Below, one piece after another: positions 900 through 38,714 of a DNA stretch of 64,000 nt. The notes below the pieces were generated by a model. It was given only the letters and a program-made list of their open reading frames with translations, searched no databases and was not told the origin of the DNA. The DNA is taken from IMG/VR virus record IMGVR_UViG_3300028584_001239. One strand, given 5' to 3'. How positions within the stretch are numbered: position 1 is the first letter of the stretch; each line of letters opens with the position of its first letter. The translations under genes were made by a program, and so were the position numbers. The stretch is from a virus.

Positions 900-1080
900 T
901 GGCGTCAAAAATAGATCGTGATAGTTGACATCCTCCCCATGTCTAAAGACAGGGGATTCCTACTGCTAGAAGGCCATGTCCGACCTCAAGTATATTCTTA
1001 GCGGAATTTTCATCCCGGTTGTGTGTGTCACCACACACACGACAAGTCCATACTCTTATTCGCAGCCCATCTAATCCTTT
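900..1080 (-). ncRNA. Predicted TnpB omega/reRNA (scaffold overlapping tnpB 3' end and RE; guide begins at 924)
   Basis: Inferred from established TnpB biology: RE hairpin plus TCAA end followed by flanking guide CTATCACGATCTATTTTTGA; 5' boundary is approximate. Confidence 0.5.
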
Positions 1081-2013
1081 CGGCCCAGTTAAGGACTTAC
1101 ACGAATGACAGGTGCGGGTAGTGTTTCTTTCGTCTACATTTACATCAGTATGTATGCCTGCGTTATCGCATTTATATACCAGCATACTTCTTGTCATGCC
1201 GTGAGCGGCATCTAATGTAGACTTTCCTCGTTTGGCTTTAAGCATTTTCTTAATGCTCAAATCACCTACATAAATTTCACTGTATTTTTTAACTAAATGA
1301 CTTGTGAATTTATGCAGTGTGTCTTTTCGAATATTTGCTATTTTAGCATGTATTGCTCTCGTTCTAACTTTGTTGTTAGAACGTTGAGCAATGGCTAATT
1401 TCTTTTCATAAGAACGATAGATTCTGTTCTTTTCTGTTTTAAAACCATCACTACAGACAGCGGATTCTTTAAAACCAAGATCAACCCCAACAGATCCTTG
1501 ACCGGAAGATAAGGTTCGTGGAATTTCAACAACCACGTTGAAATACCAACGACCGCGAGCATCTTCATTGAAAGTTGCATTTTTAAAGGTGTATTTTGAA
1601 AGGCCATAACTGTCCCAAACAGAAAAATAATGCCCATTAAAATAAACTTGACCATTTTTCCAAGAAGCTGCTTTTGTGTTAATAGGAATCCAACCAAGTG
1701 ATCGTTTAGAACCACTTGTTTTTCGCCATTTTAATTTATTCTTTTTAAATTGTTTGCGTCTTGTTGCATATTCTTTACAAATAGATTGAACGGTTTGACT
1801 GTGCAAACCTAATTCTTTTGAACAACCATCGGTATATTTTTGCAAATCAAAATTTGAAAGGAATTTTTGACGTTCTTGAATAAATCGGGAACTTAATTCA
1901 TTGACATAATTCCAAACAAAGTTCACGTTCTTTGCCATTTGGCAAAGAACTGAAACATGTTTGTCTTTAACTCTAACTTTGAGAGTTTTAGTGATATAAG
2001 TGAGTTCATTCAT
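943..2013 (-). CDS. tnpB: RNA-guided endonuclease TnpB
   Basis: N-terminal TLKVRVK/NFVWN, RuvC-I GVDLG, RuvC-II region YVGDL with alternative E in VDERNTT, Zn finger CHSC..CRVC, RuvC-III NRDENSAKNI. Confidence 0.95.
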   Translation of the reverse strand: MNELTYITKTLKVRVKDKHVSVLCQMAKNVNFVWNYVNELSSRFIQERQKFLSNFDLQKYTDGCSKELGLHSQTVQSICKEYATRRKQFKKNKLKWRKTSGSKRSLGWIPINTKAASWKNGQVYFNGHYFSVWDSYGLSKYTFKNATFNEDARGRWYFNVVVEIPRTLSSGQGSVGVDLGFKESAVCSDGFKTEKNRIYRSYEKKLAIAQRSNNKVRTRAIHAKIANIRKDTLHKFTSHLVKKYSEIYVGDLSIKKMLKAKRGKSTLDAAHGMTRSMLVYKCDNAGIHTDVNVDERNTTRTCHSCKSLTGPKGLDGLRIRVWTCRVCGDTHNRDENSAKNILEVGHGLLAVGIPCL

Positions 2014-2854: not shown

Positions 2855-3208
2855 ATGACAAATGCAGACAAAAAGAACACTTTAAAATATAAAACAAACG
2901 AACACTTGGTGAGACTCATCAACAACGGATGTGCTAGCTATAAATATACAGAAAACGAGTATGTTGAGTTTCTAATTAAAAAAGGACTTTATGCGTTTGA
3001 AGAACGCATAGAACATGAAAATCCATCCAAAGTATTAGCACACATGAAAGATGCAATGGAATTCTTTAATTTTGCGGATGATAAATTATCTACAATGGAA
3101 CTTGAGCGTCAAACAGCTCTTAATCTGAAGTTAACGTGTAAAGAATTTGAAAAAGAGATTGTAGAATTAACAACAATGTTTATTTGTTACTCCATACTAC
3201 GAGACTAA
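2855..3208 (+). CDS. Hypothetical protein
   Basis: 117-aa ORF, upstream promoter-like TATAAT and SD-like GAGAG. Confidence 0.7.
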   Translation: MTNADKKNTLKYKTNEHLVRLINNGCASYKYTENEYVEFLIKKGLYAFEERIEHENPSKVLAHMKDAMEFFNFADDKLSTMELERQTALNLKLTCKEFEKEIVELTTMFICYSILRD

Positions 3209-3219
3209 AGGAAATTATT

Positions 3220-3462
3220 ATGACTATCCAATCACGTCTATCTAAATATAAATCACTGAAATATCAACATGCTATCAAACATCGTCTTCGTTACTTTGTT
3301 GAAGGCTATATTGATCACATGCAAGGTGCTAATTTTAGCATGACACCTTATCCACTCAGTCCAACTCCGTCCTATGCTTGTGACAATGAAAAAACCAAGC
3401 GTAAATACTGGAGCCGTGGTTATTGGGCTGCAGAACGTATCGCTAAACGTAAGAGGGCGTAA
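3220..3462 (+). CDS. Hypothetical basic protein
   Basis: Start reassigned to ATG 3220 after AAGGAA; operon-like spacing. Confidence 0.7.
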   Translation: MTIQSRLSKYKSLKYQHAIKHRLRYFVEGYIDHMQGANFSMTPYPLSPTPSYACDNEKTKRKYWSRGYWAAERIAKRKRA

Positions 3463-3464
3463 TT

Positions 3465-3677
3465 ATGACATTTACCATCATCGGTCTATTTCTTCTTTGT
3501 TGGTTTTTGATTGGTCTTAGTTCTGGATTTATTTGTTCTTGGATTGACTCCAAATATAATGGATTTCGTTTTGATTATACGGCTGCCTTCAAAATGTCTT
3601 TTCTAGGCGTATTGCTTCTTATTTGGATACCAATTTTCTACACACGATCTAAAAAAGAACAAAAAATTCGGTGGTAG
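3465..3677 (+). CDS. Small two-TM membrane protein; paralog of 45808..46032
   Basis: Two hydrophobic stretches; CWFLIGLSSGFICSWID matches SWFIVGFIGGILCSGVD. Confidence 0.7.
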   Translation: MTFTIIGLFLLCWFLIGLSSGFICSWIDSKYNGFRFDYTAAFKMSFLGVLLLIWIPIFYTRSKKEQKIRW

Positions 3678-3681
3678 TTAT

Positions 3682-4470
3682 TCAAATCACCATCATTCTT
3701 AAAAGTGAAACATAATCTTCATTAAACATATCAGTGTCTATATCAAGGTTATGTTTAACCACTGCTTTATAATGAGTCGCAAATTCATTGTCAATCAAAA
3801 CAGAAAATGATTCTAAGTCAGAAAAACAATAATCAACGCCAATGTAACCATCTGGGCTTTGCTTAATTTGTTCACAATTGATATGCCACACTCCATTTAA
3901 TTGAGTAATCATTACATTGAAAAGAGTTTGATTGGCGTCTGCATAGGGAATAGGCAATTGAAATAAATAGACTTCTGTTAACTGGAATTGTTCGTTAAAT
4001 AGATATTGTCTACTCATCACAAGATCTCGATATTTTCTTTTACTCGACAACATGCCAACAACATCAAAATGAGTTTTGAAACGAGATGTAAATTCAAGCT
4101 TATTTTTATTGTTCAATCTGTTTAATATATTCTTCTGATGACTCTTATTCTTGCGTGGGTCATAGATTTTATATTTTTCGGCTGCTGTATAGATGATATT
4201 AAACATTTCCAAAATATAGTTGTTATCAAGTGGAATGTAATCTAATGATGACAAAAGAAATAACTTATCTGCTAGATTTGAGCCAAGGAAAGATACATAA
4301 TGAGTATCTTTATTAATTCTCAGAAAAGATCGTCTAATATTACCTTTAAAACGGTTAGGCACAATATCATAAAAAGAACGTTCTTCATCCAATCGGTAAT
4401 CTTTCAACTGTGGCATGATATGGTTGAGTAAGCCAATCTTTGGAAATTCTAAATTTAAGAATTGTTTCAT
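3682..4470 (-). CDS. Hypothetical protein with C-terminal MxxI motif
   Basis: 262 aa; ends YVSLLRMMVI. Confidence 0.85.
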   Translation of the reverse strand: MKQFLNLEFPKIGLLNHIMPQLKDYRLDEERSFYDIVPNRFKGNIRRSFLRINKDTHYVSFLGSNLADKLFLLSSLDYIPLDNNYILEMFNIIYTAAEKYKIYDPRKNKSHQKNILNRLNNKNKLEFTSRFKTHFDVVGMLSSKRKYRDLVMSRQYLFNEQFQLTEVYLFQLPIPYADANQTLFNVMITQLNGVWHINCEQIKQSPDGYIGVDYCFSDLESFSVLIDNEFATHYKAVVKHNLDIDTDMFNEDYVSLLRMMVI

Positions 4471-4472
4471 GT

Positions 4473-5261
4473 TTAAATCCTCGACATATAAACCAAATCA
4501 GCATAAGGTTTGATTTCTTCATCTGTCATGCTATATAATTTTTTCAATGCAATATTATGATCTGCAACAATAGTAGAAAATAATTCTAACAATATAAGTG
4601 AAGTGGTATCCTTCTTACATCTTTTAACAGATTTTTCAAACTTTTCAATTGGATCGGTAAGAATGATATAGCTCTCAGCATGATAATCATCTAATGTGCT
4701 TGACGTTAATTGACATCTAAATTCAAATTTATTTTGTTTAACATTCAAATCATAATCGAAGCGACCAGTTAAAAAGTGAGCACTGCGTTCAGTAACGTTA
4801 TATAAATTACTATTAACCTGCATTCTAAAATATCGTTTAGTACACAAACTATAATAAAGCCTGTTATCTTTTTTATCTATTGAAGACTTAAACGAAAAAA
4901 ATGGTGTACTGTCTAAATCAATTTGACTGAAGAACTTAAATTTAGCATTTACATCATTAATACTATCAAGGATAAATAATAATCGTTGCTTATAATTAAT
5001 CTGTTCATTGTCAAATAATAGATTGAACACTTTTTCAAGAAAAGCAGGATTTGCTGTCGAACGTATTTGTAAAGCTGATTTTTGTGCAAATAGGCTGGCA
5101 TAGTTTACAATAAAAAGTTCACTATTATTATCCACAACGATTTCAAATGAAGCCTGTTCTTTATCAATATGTTTGTAAATGGGGGTTATGGAGAAATGCT
5201 GTTCGAAAAAATTAATGAAATATTTTTTTACTTCTAGCTCTAAATCAACTTTAATTTTCAT
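4473..5261 (-). CDS. Hypothetical protein with C-terminal MxxI motif
   Basis: 262 aa; ends YADLVYMSRI. Confidence 0.85.
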   Translation of the reverse strand: MKIKVDLELEVKKYFINFFEQHFSITPIYKHIDKEQASFEIVVDNNSELFIVNYASLFAQKSALQIRSTANPAFLEKVFNLLFDNEQINYKQRLLFILDSINDVNAKFKFFSQIDLDSTPFFSFKSSIDKKDNRLYYSLCTKRYFRMQVNSNLYNVTERSAHFLTGRFDYDLNVKQNKFEFRCQLTSSTLDDYHAESYIILTDPIEKFEKSVKRCKKDTTSLILLELFSTIVADHNIALKKLYSMTDEEIKPYADLVYMSRI

Positions 5262-20600: not shown

Positions 20601-21338
20601 TCAAATCAACGACAGATGACGTGTAACAGGGTCAATGTCATCAGGGTATTGTGGCGAAACACACAAACAATCATTACCATCATCCACAATGCGTTCAACC
20701 ACAAAACCAGCCGACTTCAATTGACGTTCAACTTCATCCAATTCATCCATCGTTTTGGTGGACAATGCAATTTTAGCAAAGGCATTCATAATCCAGTCAG
20801 TCAATGCGTTCTTTTGAGTGATGTCAAAATACTTGTTACCGTCTTCATCATTCAGCATTTGATTGTACAGCAACTTCAAGCAAGAAATAACGGCTTGCTG
20901 ACAAGCCTTCTCTTTACTGAGTGGTTTGTCTTTGTTGAACACAAAGATTTGCTTGGACTTAATCTCGGTACCATAAGTCTGAGGTACATTCATCACGGTC
21001 AAATCACAAGGCGTGAAAATACCATGTGCAGCACATGTAGTGGTGGCAACACCATGAAACTCAGTGCGACCATTGTCTACAATGATAGACACAGGAGCCA
21101 GTGGAGCTAAAATAGCATGAAGTTCATCTTCGTCTTTAACCATAACAATTTCAACCACTGGGTTATTGAAGAACTCCAAGAACTCAGCTTTTTGTTTTGC
21201 CAGCAATGTCATACGGGTGGGGCTTTTTTTCATAGCCTCAAAGAAAAGTTTCATGGCAGCGTGACCGGATTGAGCGGCCATCTTACCTTTTCGCATTTTC
21301 AGGTCATTGCGAACAAAAATTTTAAGAAAATTAGACAT
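20601..21338 (-). CDS. pth2: Peptidyl-tRNA hydrolase 2 (Pth2) family, two tandem domains
   Basis: VRNDLKMRKGKMAAQSGHAA and IVDNGRTEF in domain 1; second degenerate repeat ending P..IDPVTRHLSLI. Confidence 0.85.
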   Translation of the reverse strand: MSNFLKIFVRNDLKMRKGKMAAQSGHAAMKLFFEAMKKSPTRMTLLAKQKAEFLEFFNNPVVEIVMVKDEDELHAILAPLAPVSIIVDNGRTEFHGVATTTCAAHGIFTPCDLTVMNVPQTYGTEIKSKQIFVFNKDKPLSKEKACQQAVISCLKLLYNQMLNDEDGNKYFDITQKNALTDWIMNAFAKIALSTKTMDELDEVERQLKSAGFVVERIVDDGNDCLCVSPQYPDDIDPVTRHLSLI

Positions 21339-35869: not shown

Positions 35870-37498
35870 ATGATGAATTTGTTTGCACGACCTATCGACA
35901 AAAAGCCAACACTTGAAATTATCCGCAAGGTGCTTCAAGGAATCGGTCAACCTAACTTTGATGACGGCACGGGTGTTCAACGTCAAGCAGGTATCACCAA
36001 CATCGTTTTAGAAGACGAAGATTTTGGTAAAAAGTTTGCGGGTCTAAGCCTGCCCGATATGCCTGATATGGACATGAGTGACTTTAATAAAACAAAACTA
36101 AGCTTTACGCTGCCAAGTGGTGATTATGTTGCAAAAATTTCGATGGGTGAATTTGTCATCAAAAAGAAAATGAAAGGCAGAGTTGCTTCGATTTATGAGC
36201 ATTTTGATAAAAAAGATCTCACTGTCATGTTAAGTGATGACGAAAAAGCTGATGAAGTGGCTGTCAGAGCTATCATTGAAAAGTTTATTCAAGAAGATGT
36301 CTCTCTACTGAATGCAGAAGATGAATCGTCTTATGAAGAAACAGTAATGGGTATTACTTATGATGGTGCCTACTGTATTGACCGTCAGTTAGGCTGGTTG
36401 TTGTTTGGCTTTATCAGTAAACAACTTGGGCTTATTCGACCAACTGAATCAAACATGCTAATTGACATTTTCATGTTGGGTGATTCTGCGGTTCGTTTTC
36501 CAGAACTTGAAAGTGTTATGCATCTCGAAATGATGCAAACTTTTAATATCTTGAAAGAGAATGGTCATGATATTGATAACGAAGTTGAATCTAATGACAT
36601 GGATAACTTCCTTTACTATGTTGAAAAAGGCGATATTCAAGGCAATGTCTATATCAGCCAGAACAATATGTTTTTGGTTGCTCGTAATGCTAAAACAAAC
36701 GTGCTCAAAGTTTGGAATACAATGCGTATCAATGAAGATTGGATGGAAAGTATTCATGATATGGCGGATATTGATGAAGATGACAATACAGTCTTCAATG
36801 TGGCAGAATACCTACAAGACTTTGCTAATGCCAAATATGCCAATCAATATGACTATCCATTTGAATTTAATGCGGACGGTTATCGTAAAAGTGTTGATCT
36901 CTTGCTGGAAGAATTTGAAACCGCTACCAACGATTTGGTTTATGACTCTGAAAAAGGTTATATGACTAAACAATACATGGAATTTAACTCATTGGCATTT
37001 GAACTGAGTTACAGTAACAGTCTGATGACTGAGGAATATGGTGTTAATCGAGATGTATTGGTTTTAACCGATATGGATATCAATTCCCCTGAATATTTCA
37101 TTCGTAGTATGACCACTGGTTTTTCTAACAGTCGTTCGGCAGCATTGCATTATTTGTTTACTTGTATGGGGACAGGGTTTGGTTGGAATGGAAAAACCTT
37201 TACAGATGGTCAAAACGTATTAAAAGACTATGCCCCGAATGAAGCCGAAAATGATTACAGCCCCTTGCAATCAGAACGAGCTTTTGCATTTGGTTCAAGT
37301 TCACTCTTGTTCCATCTGCCAAACGATTTACCAGAAGCATGGCGTAAGGTTGTTTTCGAGATTGCTGTTTATTTGACGGACTGGGCGATTAAAAACCCTG
37401 ATGACAAGGAAGCTATCGCTTGCAAGGATGATTTGGCAAAAGTATTTGAAGAATACTACGATGAAGAAGTCTTACAAAAAGTGAAAGCTGCAAGTTAA
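35870..37498 (+). CDS. Large acidic hypothetical protein; paralog of 19013..20536
   Basis: PNFDDGTG, NGHDIDNEVESNDMDNFLYY, LKVWNT, FGSSSLLFHLP. Confidence 0.85.
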   Translation: MMNLFARPIDKKPTLEIIRKVLQGIGQPNFDDGTGVQRQAGITNIVLEDEDFGKKFAGLSLPDMPDMDMSDFNKTKLSFTLPSGDYVAKISMGEFVIKKKMKGRVASIYEHFDKKDLTVMLSDDEKADEVAVRAIIEKFIQEDVSLLNAEDESSYEETVMGITYDGAYCIDRQLGWLLFGFISKQLGLIRPTESNMLIDIFMLGDSAVRFPELESVMHLEMMQTFNILKENGHDIDNEVESNDMDNFLYYVEKGDIQGNVYISQNNMFLVARNAKTNVLKVWNTMRINEDWMESIHDMADIDEDDNTVFNVAEYLQDFANAKYANQYDYPFEFNADGYRKSVDLLLEEFETATNDLVYDSEKGYMTKQYMEFNSLAFELSYSNSLMTEEYGVNRDVLVLTDMDINSPEYFIRSMTTGFSNSRSAALHYLFTCMGTGFGWNGKTFTDGQNVLKDYAPNEAENDYSPLQSERAFAFGSSSLLFHLPNDLPEAWRKVVFEIAVYLTDWAIKNPDDKEAIACKDDLAKVFEEYYDEEVLQKVKAAS

Positions 37499-37510: not shown

Positions 37511-37535
37511 GAAAGAGGCTCCGGCCTCTTTTTTT
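37511..37535 (+). terminator. Intrinsic terminator
   Basis: GAAAGAGGC-tccg-GCCTCTTT plus T tract. Confidence 0.8.
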
Positions 37536-37554
37536 GTGTCCAAATTTTAAGCAC

Positions 37555-37578
37555 AAAAAAACCACAACGAAGTGGTTT
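37555..37578 (-). terminator. Intrinsic terminator closing the MREEDHGF micro-ORF unit
   Basis: Minus strand AAACCAC-ttcgtt-GTGGTTT plus T tract. Confidence 0.75.
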
Positions 37579-37590
37579 AATGATTGGATT

Positions 37591-37617
37591 CTAAAATCCG
37601 TGGTCTTCTTCTCTCAT
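37591..37617 (-). CDS. 8-aa micropeptide MREEDHGF
   Basis: AAGGAG-7 nt-ATG AGA GAA GAA GAC CAC GGA TTT TAG; own promoter and terminator; similar to MQEEYEGL. Confidence 0.6.
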   Translation of the reverse strand: MREEDHGF

Positions 37618-37650
37618 TAGATATCTCCTTTTAAAGAATATTACAACTGC

Positions 37651-37679
37651 ATTATAACAAGATGTTTAATTGATGTAAA
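37651..37679 (-). promoter_or_regulatory. sigma70-like promoter for micro-ORF
   Basis: TTTACA-N17-TATAAT with extended TG. Confidence 0.75.
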
Positions 37680-37699
37680 GTGAAACAGTCAACCAAACA

Positions 37700-38224
37700 T
37701 TAAGACAACGGTTCGCCTTCGCCAATGTAGTATTTATTAACCACAGCAGCAAATTCTTGGTAACTCATCTTATTGTTCAGTTGTTTTTCTTCAGGAACTT
37801 TCTTATCGTTGGCATAAAACTCATAGTAAGAACTCAATGTCATGATATCATAAAGCGGTTTACCCAGCTCACCAGTGAAGACAAAATAGAAAAAGTCATC
37901 ATAACCACCAGAACTGTTTCTATAAGATTGCGTATCAAAATAGGTTTCGATTACAAGCAAACCTTTACGGAAATCGTTATGGAAAATATACTCAACAAGC
38001 TGTTGAATAAGCAACTGGTGGTTGGTTCCAATGGTGTCTTCTTCTTGCTTAATGTGGTTAATTTCTTTTTGAAGAGCCGCCAATGCAGTCTGGTTGGTGA
38101 TCTTAGGGAGCACACGTTCAAGTTCATACCTGTCATTAGTGCGTTGTTCAAAAGCAATGTAGTATTTAATAAAGTTATCAACAACAGTAACCACTTCGCT
38201 AACGGTCATTTTAATTTTAATCAT
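37700..38224 (-). CDS. Hypothetical protein
   Basis: 174-aa ORF, SD AAGGTG. Confidence 0.75.
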   Translation of the reverse strand: MIKIKMTVSEVVTVVDNFIKYYIAFEQRTNDRYELERVLPKITNQTALAALQKEINHIKQEEDTIGTNHQLLIQQLVEYIFHNDFRKGLLVIETYFDTQSYRNSSGGYDDFFYFVFTGELGKPLYDIMTLSSYYEFYANDKKVPEEKQLNNKMSYQEFAAVVNKYYIGEGEPLS

Positions 38225-38271
38225 TTGTTCACCTTAATAGATTTAATTGAGCTAGTATACATTATTTTTAT

Positions 38272-38298
38272 AAAAAAGAAAGCCACATTCAAGTGGCT
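38272..38298 (-). terminator. Intrinsic terminator after MQEEYEGL micro-ORF
   Basis: Minus strand AGCCAC-ttgaat-GTGGCT followed by TTCTTTTTT. Confidence 0.75.
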
Positions 38299-38314
38299 AG
38301 CCATCTTAGACAGT

Positions 38315-38341
38315 TTAAAGACCTTCGTATTCTTCTTGCAT
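38315..38341 (-). CDS. 8-aa micropeptide MQEEYEGL
   Basis: AAGGAG-5 nt-ATG CAA GAA GAA TAC GAA GGT CTT TAA, last ORF of operon before terminator. Confidence 0.6.
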   Translation of the reverse strand: MQEEYEGL

Positions 38342-38354
38342 AAGCTCTCCTTTA

Positions 38355-38714
38355 TCAGTAATTCTTGGAATAGAACACTAGTTCAACTTTGTCAGTATAG
38401 TGTTCTAAATTGACAATTTTAAGCAGTTTAAAAAACTCATCGCGTTTAGCAACAGAAATATCACCATACTTCGAATTGATGGCATTAATTTCAGTCATAG
38501 TCAGCATTTTACTTGCGTCATTAACTTCGCCCATTGGGTAGAGAACAATACAGGCCCAACCATGTTCGCAATCACCCTCTGTAAACTCAACACAATCCAA
38601 GCCAAATGTGTTAAGTTTAACATTCCAATCACAAGCGTCTTCAAGACGCTTAAATTCTTCTTTTGTTAAAATGGTTGATGGAAAACCATAACCATAATGT
38701 AAATAATGTTGCAT
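38355..38714 (-). CDS. Hypothetical protein
   Basis: SD AAGGAGG; operon with neighbours. Confidence 0.8.
   Translation of the reverse strand: MQHYLHYGYGFPSTILTKEEFKRLEDACDWNVKLNTFGLDCVEFTEGDCEHGWACIVLYPMGEVNDASKMLTMTEINAINSKYGDISVAKRDEFFKLLKIVNLEHYTDKVELVFYSKNY

Follow-up and report, generated by a model that had tools for sequence, protein, structure and literature searches.

The IMG/VR virus record IMGVR_UViG_3300028584_001239 carries, within the 64,000-nucleotide stretch analysed here (the window), two open reading frames (ORFs) of only eight codons on the minus strand, namely unit 1 (encoding MREEDHGF) and unit 2 (encoding MQEEYEGL). Judging by its conservation in related contigs, unit 2 is probably a translated gene that is maintained by selection on its peptide. 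The account favoured here, somewhat tentatively, is that these ORFs are genuine micro-genes of a widespread family of acidic phage peptides, which would act in trans as docking or decoy peptides. A family of ultra-short phage genes with an EEYEG[FL]-type unit is previously undescribed; the motif strings were not found in the papers and preprints that were text-searched. Genes of eight codons fall below every annotation threshold, and only longer homologues in the phage Phabio have been annotated, as hypothetical proteins.

Relatives of the locus were collected independently of the motif, by way of the 174-residue protein encoded between the two units; this yielded six homologue clusters with 57–95% identity. 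The corresponding contigs L001–L007, together with the syntenic contig L049 (48% identity), provide eight independent views of the locus; the window itself is labelled WIN. Unit 2 is present in all eight, with the peptides MQEEYEGL (three loci), MQEEYEDL, MNEEYEGL, MREEYDGL, MKEEYEGL and, in L007, MYKECDGF. The Shine–Dalgarno (SD) sequence is kept in seven relatives, including L049, where it reads TAGGAGG and precedes MKEEYEGL; it is lost in L007. In L006, another gene replaces the 119-residue upstream gene, and unit 2 is retained.

Mean pairwise identity among these sequences is 1.00 for the ATG and for the stop codon, and 0.56 for codon 2. Codons 3–8 reach 0.88 (0.94 without L007) versus 0.48–0.57 in the flanks; the spacer from stop codon to terminator has 0.48 and the segment before the next gene 0.54. 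In the terminator, the stems have identities of 0.93–0.96 and the loop 0.64. Resolved by codon position, codons 3–8 of unit 2 show 0.92, 0.92 and 0.80 at positions 1, 2 and 3, compared with 0.75, 0.79 and 0.54 in the neighbouring 174-residue gene. The substitutions are either synonymous (TAC to TAT, CTT to CTG) or conservative (Glu to Asp). These sequence comparisons indicate that strong purifying selection acts on unit 2 as a coding sequence whose second codon is free, and that in this clade selection keeps its peptide sequence rather than its RNA. Selection at the peptide level had been proposed for both units in the original prediction; conservation in the relatives bears this out, with strong support in the case of unit 2 and weak support in that of unit 1. 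The reading frame and the E-E..G-[FL] pattern are retained, and within this clade the ORFs are not end-joined remnants of long genes.

Degenerate DNA scans beyond the window recovered the same peptide, with differing codons, in unrelated phages. The family pattern was defined as M-x-[EE/DD]-Y-[ED]-G-[FL]-stop in a stand-alone ORF; unit 2 matches it in full, with eight codons, ATG, free codon 2, hexapeptide and stop. More than 20 distinct 8-codon members were found in unrelated viral or metagenomic lineages at guanine-plus-cytosine (GC) contents of 32–63%, mostly with an SD. Position 2 accommodates 11 different residues, and the last residue is Phe or Leu, spelled in seven ways (TTT, TTC, CTT, CTG, TTG, TTA and CTA). 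Synonymous codons, SD wording and flanks all differ across lineages; the amino-acid sequence alone is kept. The carriers comprise Pseudomonas phages (both jumbo and temperate), marine T4-like phages, low-GC giant elements and Bacteroidota contigs.

The scan of IMG/VR with ATG-NNN-EEY[ED]G[FL]-TAA gave eight loci in five to six unrelated lineages (40–55% GC), all of them stand-alone ORFs of 8–9 codons with an SD-like sequence and with varying synonymous codons. A scrambled peptide of equal degeneracy gave no matches in the same type of scan, and with TGG in place of the stop codon every match lay inside a long ORF. When position 5 was left free, Tyr occupied it in 8 of 14 matches; among the remaining matches, MKEEDEGF alone had a good SD. 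Five further M-x-DDYEGF genes, on five contigs, came to light once Asp was permitted at the acidic positions, and scans of species genomes and metagenomes added MDEEYEGF (in a Rhodothermales metagenome-assembled genome) and MREEYEGF (63% GC). On a 604-kb contig, MFEEYDGL is accompanied by AAAGGAG, a terminator and a promoter arranged as in the window, while MVEEYEGL and MTEEYEGL lie on Bacteroidota-type contigs and have no SD.

The genomic context of the family members varies. The stop codon lies 5–20 nt ahead of a terminator stem in the window clade, L048, L014, L052/54/56 and L061/62; in L009, L011 and L037, it overlaps or abuts the next start codon. The terminator directly after the ORF, which the original prediction stressed and which both window units possess, is not universal, being absent from about half of the lineages. 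No neighbouring gene is common to all lineages, and phoH is immediately upstream in two only. An EEYEGF mini-ORF is situated immediately 3′ of phoH in two unrelated lineages (L014:157-986 and L058:8235-9048), and in L012 phoH is 5 kb away; this proximity could be a positional association or merely a common early-region context. In L014, MHEEYEGF is located between phoH and an exonuclease gene. Phage pf16 (L066, NC_041881), a relative of L014, has MSIETI and MHDERPDI (SD TAGGAG) at 1180-1236, between phoH and an annotated terminator; MHDERPDI matches the start of the 16-residue ORF MKDERPDIITNDEEWV in L011.

Relatives of L012 were sought through a 453-residue neighbour, and the MNEEYEGF gene was found in L012, L013 and L008/L075. 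In L008 and L013, this micro-gene has its own promoter (TTGACA-17-TAATAAT), like unit 1. In L074, where the preceding small gene is still recognisable (49% identity), the corresponding slot is occupied by a promoter and an SD together with MKNFNEEYDGIGTIYDIGYGAGSEEDCI, a 28-residue peptide containing NEEYDGI. Taken at the sequence level, the family is patchy and its members evolve rapidly in length, with the hexapeptide unit persisting.

This unit can be written as [DE][DE]-Tyr-[DE]-Gly-[Phe/Leu/Ile], and the alignments point to the 8-codon form (fMet, a free residue and the hexapeptide) as its minimal version. When EEYEGF-TAA was sought without a start codon, 15 viral loci were obtained, 12 of them in ORFs of at most 18 codons: seven are 8-codon ORFs, five are mini-ORFs, one is the end of a 207-residue protein and two have no start codon. 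The reversed peptide gave two loci, both without ATG start and without SD. The five mini-ORF loci encode three distinct peptides in 15–16 codons, with an SD and, in most cases, a terminator after the ORF; the peptides are MNVLPVQANEEYEGF (variant MNVLSVRANEEYEGF), MSSYVENAREEYEGF and MHKEIDLGFMEEYEGF, with which MTEKEIDLGFMIEEYEGF in L037 may be compared. The unit ends mini-ORFs of 15–18 residues and opens peptides of 27–28 residues. No cultured relatives of the 15-residue form were found. In the Pseudomonas phi3-like temperate contigs L052, L054 and L056, a 15-residue ...EEYEGF mini-ORF with a strong terminator always stands ahead of a phrog_2284 protein.

L011:3706-3936 contains four tandem tiny acidic ORFs, encoding MKEEYEGF, MKDERPDIITNDEEWV, MKSIETIIGSQEDVRPDIITDEHDDLVCREEDWI and MKREIDSDLFDDYEGF. 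Its cultured relative, the Pseudomonas jumbo phage Phabio (L071, NC_062582; 822-1047), has annotated homologues gp353, gp354 and gp355 of 27, 18 and 29 residues. In gp353 (MKEEYEGLDIGCEEINLGFMTATKEWT), MKEEYEGL opens the peptide and a similar second unit comes next; gp355 contains DEYEGY. The 8-codon form in L011 differs from gp353 by a 57-nt indel. The array in these two phages (three to four ORFs of 8–34 residues, ending in ...EEWV, ...EDWI or ...YEGF) adjoins thymidylate synthase, and its ORFs vary in length through indels and the gain or loss of stop codons.

The 207-residue protein (L053:12176-12799, minus strand; P0007-P0126) belongs to a very acidic family of at least 216 clusters and about 200 residues, with a conserved C-terminal tail ...D-R-x-x-N-P-[EQ]-[DE]-Y-E-(G-F). 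Among 120 listed members, about one-third end in ...NP[EQ][DE]YEG[FL] and most others in ...NP[EQ][DE]YE. An AlphaFold model of the protein (mean predicted local distance difference test score, pLDDT, 90.5) has a ferredoxin fold like that of YubB/Api92 (DUF1281), with a long C-terminal helix followed by an exposed tail. This YubB-like family is unassigned in Pfam and PHROGs and unmatched in cultured phages, and the literature searched contains an incidental mention only. Phabio gp353 and gp355 and the YubB-like tail (EDYEGF/EEYEGF) resemble the micro-genes in carrying the same unit and in being acidic, phage-borne and functionally uncharacterised; they differ from the micro-genes in their greater length and in that the unit makes up just part of the product, at its N-terminus, in its interior or as its tail. 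Two other long proteins that end in the motif, an alanine racemase and a YozE-like protein, are chance matches.

Unit 1 agrees with the family test in its length, E-E and G-F, with D-H standing where Y-E is expected. The sole outside parallel to this form without Tyr is the above-mentioned MKEEDEGF, found in L022; the unit-1-specific pattern, EEDHGF plus hairpin, was not found in the viral contigs scanned. The two peptides had been described as encoded by different DNA; the DNA is not fully different, as the two ORFs agree at 19 of 27 bases and the two terminators have CCACTT-N4-GTGG in common, a string present at just these two places in the window. The pattern ATGNNNGARGARNNNNNNGGNYTNTRR was observed twice in 64 kb against an expectation of 0.01; since it was derived post hoc from both units, this count alone proves little, and the weight lies on the conservation among relatives and on the recurrence in other phages. 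In L006 and L049, which have no unit 1, ACCACTT-N4-GTGGTTTTTT lies directly 3′ of the 174-residue gene; in WIN, L001, L003 and L004/5, promoter, SD and ORF form a block that separates that gene from this terminator. This arrangement indicates that the terminator after unit 1 is the ancestral terminator of the 174-residue gene, and that unit 1 is a clade-restricted insertion. Unit 1 is probably a diverged, younger copy of unit 2; it would have been inserted, with its own promoter, between the 174-residue gene and the old terminator of that gene. The paralogous terminators, (A/G)CCACTT-N4-GTGG(C/T)TTT, bracket the 174-residue gene (37559-37578 and 38281-38298, minus strand), and their stems are invariant in all relatives; they could represent a duplicated cassette boundary or a protein-binding hairpin.

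Across the eight relatives, unit 1 occurs as four intact copies and one decayed copy (L002), and is missing from three (L006, L007 and L049). Its ORF is identical at the DNA level in WIN, L001 and L004/5, and L003 has one synonymous change in codon 2 (AGA to CGA). An equivalent promoter (TTGACA/TTGACT-17-TATAAT) is found in L001, L003 and L004, as is the SD. In L002, the SD is destroyed (AAAAGTAGC), the −10 element is weakened and the peptide reads MIEEDHVF, in which the change from Gly to Val also breaks the small hairpin at the stop codon. This sample of relatives is too shallow to prove selection on unit 1, and its function is less certain.

The signals around both units are listed in Table 1. 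For unit 1, the promoter with its TG, the SD, the ORF, the hairpin with the stop codon in its loop and the terminator all lie where they had been placed; the promoter matches at 11 of 12 positions with an extended −10 TG, and is the top promoter match in a 3-kb scan. The hairpin had been singled out at the stop codon of unit 1; it is not a family feature, as there is no counterpart at unit 2 or in other members, and it is broken in L002. No covariation is available for it among the relatives. For unit 2, the SD, ORF and terminator likewise proved to be correctly located, and the sequence confirms its operon-closing place: it starts 13 nt past the stop codon of the preceding gene. The extended −10 element of the putative promoter for the 174-residue gene, AATAATGTATACT, is kept in WIN, L001–L004 and L049.

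Table 1. Features of the micro-gene locus in the window (nucleotide positions in the 64-kb stretch; RBS, ribosome-binding site; aa, amino acids).
Feature	Position	Strand	Details
Unit 1 promoter	37651..37679	-	-35 TTTACA (37679-37674), 17-nt spacer ending TGT, -10 TATAAT (37656-37651)
Unit 1 RBS	37618..37630	-	SD AAGGAG (37630-37625) and 7-nt spacer; from sequence
Unit 1 micro-gene, 8 codons	37617-37591	-	ATG AGA GAA GAA GAC CAC GGA TTT TAG = MREEDHGF
Small hairpin, unit 1 stop codon in loop	37586..37599	-	GGATT (37599-37595)/AATCC (37590-37586); -3.8 kcal/mol, z -2.55
Terminator 3′ of unit 1	37552..37578	-	stem-loop 37578-37559 and T-run
Second terminator, bidirectional	37512..37531	.	37531-37512; common to convergent 542-aa gene (35870-37498, plus strand); kept in all relatives
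Unit 2 micro-gene, 8 codons	38341-38315	-	ATG CAA GAA GAA TAC GAA GGT CTT TAA = MQEEYEGL
Unit 2 RBS	38342..38352	-	SD AAGGAG (38352-38347) and 5-nt spacer; from sequence
119-aa orphan gene	38355..38714	-	last long gene of the operon closed by unit 2
Intrinsic terminator 3′ of unit 2	38272..38298	-	AGCCAC-TTGAAT-GTGGCT (stem-loop 38298-38281) and T-run
Putative extended -10 of promoter for 174-aa gene	38254..38261	-	TG-T-TATACT; predicted from sequence
174-aa orphan gene between units 1 and 2	37700..38224	-	anchor for the unbiased set of relatives

The window is rich in orphan genes, has about 32% GC and contains no tRNA genes. Its recognisable genes encode a glutamate-synthase domain, a Dam methylase, TnpB, a tandem PTH2, an HD/kinase protein and NAGPA. 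By Pfam, 20601-21338 (minus strand) encodes a PTH2 peptidyl-tRNA hydrolase with two matched stretches, and 943-2013 (minus strand) a TnpB/Cas12f-like protein with OrfB_IS605 and TNB domains. Most neighbouring genes are unmatched in Pfam, PHROGs and NCBIfam, and the few matches are uninformative; the 174-residue product has no match in these three databases, and the locus has no DNA or protein relatives among the cultured phages or plasmids searched. L007 apparently has two genes of about 174 codons close together (3001-3528 and 4057-4581). The relatives sit on contigs of 136 and 520 kb, and the source is likely a huge phage or a similar giant mobile element. The locus is present in runs of ten studies, covering food, groundwater, wastewater, rhizosphere, skin and pig samples.

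In its layout, the locus resembles mccA of the microcin C operon, which also combines an SD, an ORF of 7–8 codons and an intrinsic terminator directly downstream. This type of minigene gives rise to a very abundant, stable, ribosome-bound short transcript (PMC4231749). The product of mccA is used as a free peptide, as the products of the units would be. Membership of the mccA class was rejected: the units end in Phe or Leu and not in Asn, there is no adjacent MccB (ThiF/E1-like), and the neighbours are unmatched in Pfam apart from NAGPA. Further differences are that no export or immunity genes are near, that the carrier is a phage and not a plasmid, and that the peptide is acidic and built on a unit that some proteins carry as their tail.

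The original prediction compared the acidic peptides and their terminal hydrophobic residue with the C-terminal tails of single-stranded DNA-binding proteins (SSB-Ct). The bacterial SSB-Ct consensus is D-D-D-[IL]-P-F. The hexapeptide does not correspond to this sequence and has no I/L-P; the idea of an acidic tail nevertheless gains indirect support, as the hexapeptide forms the conserved tail of the family of about 200 residues, and the T7 tails (gp2.5, ...EEADEDGDF; gp4, ...DWSNDTDF) are of the same general class, with an acidic run, an aromatic or hydrophobic C-terminal residue and, in gp2.5, a Gly near the end. An acidic stretch followed by a C-terminal Phe is found in EEYEGF and EEDHGF, and unit 2 itself ends in Leu. 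SSB-Ct and the T7 tails are portable docking peptides with which a free peptide can compete; the role of the SSB tail has been reviewed (PMC9917605). Unlike these tails, the family deviates from the consensus, has an invariant Tyr without counterpart, consists of a free 8-mer rather than a peptide tethered to an OB-fold protein, and in some phages carries its unit away from the C-terminus.

In the favoured account, the peptide would be made early in infection from strong σ70-type promoters, and the arrangement of SD, micro-ORF and terminator would, as in mccA, generate a short, abundant mRNA covered by ribosomes. Acting in trans, the peptide may serve as a short linear docking motif that inserts into a basic or hydrophobic pocket of a conserved protein, probably of the host; the acidic pair, the Tyr, the Gly and the terminal hydrophobic residue would be the docking residues. 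It could thus compete with, or mimic, proteins whose own acidic tails are similar and finish with an aromatic residue. Both the tandem and the tail-borne versions are consistent with a short linear motif that is deployed at different valencies, and the broad host range of the carriers argues for a very conserved target. For unit 2, a role in trans as a binding or decoy peptide is possible, and rather less assured than its status as a gene; that its target should be specifically a replication or SSB-type partner is at most a faint prospect. A broader version is more doubtful than the trans role itself: phages of many phyla might use [DE][DE]-Y-E-G-[FL] as a universal ‘address’ peptide directed at a single, highly conserved bacterial protein, for instance a hub of replication, transcription or defence, which would be jammed or hijacked early in infection; the peptide would be delivered as a free 8-mer, as tandem mini-proteins or as the YubB-like tail. 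Phage ribonucleotide reductase β is unlikely to be the common partner, as two complete phages with micro-ORFs do not have it and the two readable tails do not match.

Several observations weigh against this account. No binding partner was identified and no constant neighbouring gene emerged from the neighbourhoods across lineages, and the tails of phage ribonucleotide reductase and of the T7 type do not match the unit by sequence. Inside cells, free 8-mers do not normally last long. In many YubB-like proteins the sequence ends at ...YE and lacks G-F, and the unit opens peptides of 27–28 residues (Phabio gp353 and L074), which suggests that a free C-terminus may not be obligatory. The 8-codon form was not found in T4, pf16 or Phabio (an M-N-D-E ORF of eight codons was also not found in T4); the slot in pf16 instead holds its two unannotated micro-ORFs, which look like fragments of the 34-residue type in L011. 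Three of the five L012-clade relatives (L072, L073 and L076) yielded neither the small gene nor the slot. Within the window clade, unit 2 of L007 has no SD, has lost three motif residues and looks decayed; unit 1 is without the invariant Tyr of the family and is decaying in L002; and the third positions of unit 2 are above the neutral level (0.80), which leaves room for an added constraint on the nucleotides. Contigs from wastewater RNA libraries span both units with no listed difference inside either ORF, although contigs cannot prove transcription, transcript ends or levels.

The alternative that survives best, though an unlikely one, is a translated element acting in cis. In this view the ribosome on the micro-ORF matters, and not the released peptide: its pause, or its termination, at ...Y-E-G-F-stop would govern the nearby terminator, shield the operon mRNA at its 3′ end or link translation with that of the following gene, and the conserved residues would then be a nascent-chain arrest motif. 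The short distance between stop codon and terminator stem in part of the family agrees with this, as does the overlap with the next start codon in L009, L011 and L037; arrest peptides are likewise selected at the amino-acid level, and mccA offers a case of ribosome-dependent termination at a minigene (PMC4231749). Against it stand the roughly half of lineages in which no terminator follows the ORF, the unit as a protein tail or as an internal or N-terminal part, which arrest at a stop codon does not explain, and unit 1, for which the bidirectional second terminator and the convergent gene leave no downstream gene to regulate. RNA folds of both units are ordinary (z −1.2 and −0.8), with no alternative structure. 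Leader-peptide attenuators (trpL, pheL) and antibiotic-sensing leaders also place a short ORF just upstream of an intrinsic terminator, but here there is neither a regulatory codon run nor an antiterminator alternative. Attenuation was rejected on these folds and on the layout: unit 1 faces the convergent gene and the second terminator, and the terminator of unit 2 is followed by a separate promoter.

It is quite improbable that the peptides are precursors or signals, either as substrates of a modifying enzyme (microcin-C-like, or like those of ribosomally synthesised and post-translationally modified peptides) or as arbitrium-like communication peptides that are released at lysis and re-imported. 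A precedent exists in MccA, which is translated directly from seven codons (PMC4231749); recognition or modification could take place at the invariant Tyr, the Gly and the terminal Phe/Leu; and the family is strongly conserved across phages. Yet no MccB/ThiF-like, radical-SAM or ATP-grasp gene is adjacent, the few Pfam-matched neighbours are unrelated, a C-terminal Asn is missing, and the context is one of early or nucleotide-metabolism genes in large phages of lytic type. An arbitrium-type system, in which a precursor with a signal sequence yields a 6-residue peptide for an AimR-type receptor, was rejected; the ORF has only eight codons, with no room for a signal peptide, and neither a receptor gene nor any other conserved neighbour travels with it across lineages.

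About equally improbable is the absence of any function, with the ORFs being frames that arose by chance or the decaying remains of tiny genes that were once longer; this is already unlikely for unit 2 and applies mainly to unit 1, which is young, has no family Tyr and is degraded in L002. The state of unit 2 in L007, the resemblance of the pf16 micro-ORFs to fragments of a 34-residue gene and the origin of the L011 8-codon form through the 57-nt indel point the same way. However, the conservation of unit 2 exceeds that of its protein-coding neighbour, and more than 20 lineages share the identical 8-codon design, against almost no matches in the controls.

Slightly less probable still is an element acting as RNA, in which unit 1 would be a small RNA of about 95 nt (from promoter to terminator) that pairs with other RNAs or binds a protein, its ORF being incidental. 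Unit 1 has its own promoter and terminator, the DNA of its 5′ untranslated region and ORF is nearly invariant in four relatives, and the third positions of unit 2 are unusually conserved in the clade. The folds are unremarkable, though, and Rfam 15 gave no match at the gathering threshold (the best, STnc130, scored 31.5 bits versus 55); codon 2 is free beside an invariant ATG, and across lineages only the amino-acid sequence persists.

Least probable is a toxic minigene of the λ bar type, in which drop-off of peptidyl-tRNA would sequester tRNA and shut off host translation, with the phage PTH2 managing the burden: minigenes of 2–8 codons do cause drop-off (PMC2490762), the ORFs have a strong SD and promoter, and a PTH2 homologue lies within the window, but drop-off declines with length and is lowest at eight codons (PMC2490762), the seven spellings of the last codon imply that no single tRNA is targeted, and neither the conservation of Y, G and F/L nor the versions of 15–34 residues are explained. 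λ bar and the synthetic minigenes of 3–8 codons (PMC2490762) are alike in being very short ORFs with an SD whose effect needs translation; bar itself has 2–3 codons and acts by tRNA sequestration with the peptide irrelevant, whereas here the peptide is conserved and the last tRNA is not.

The reading as genuine micro-genes of a trans-acting peptide family has several implications. Gene callers discard ORFs of this size, so that the family has gone unseen across jumbo phages, T4-like phages, temperate Pseudomonas phages and huge uncultured elements. Genes of eight codons that are selected across phyla would rank among the shortest conserved genes known; if the ‘address’ reading were true, no smaller conserved protein-coding genes that act in trans would be known from viruses, and every gene caller would systematically have passed them over. 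The motif provides a concrete handle, as a synthetic octapeptide could fish out the target, and Phabio, which carries the unit, is cultured on a genetically tractable host, Pseudomonas fluorescens SBW25. The motif also ties the uncharacterised phage YubB/DUF1281-like proteins to the same putative partner. Should the target be a conserved host hub, the peptide would be a natural inhibitor lead and a new phage factor for host takeover or anti-defence. There is a realistic chance that the directly translated micro-peptide genes described here mark a new and general phage strategy.

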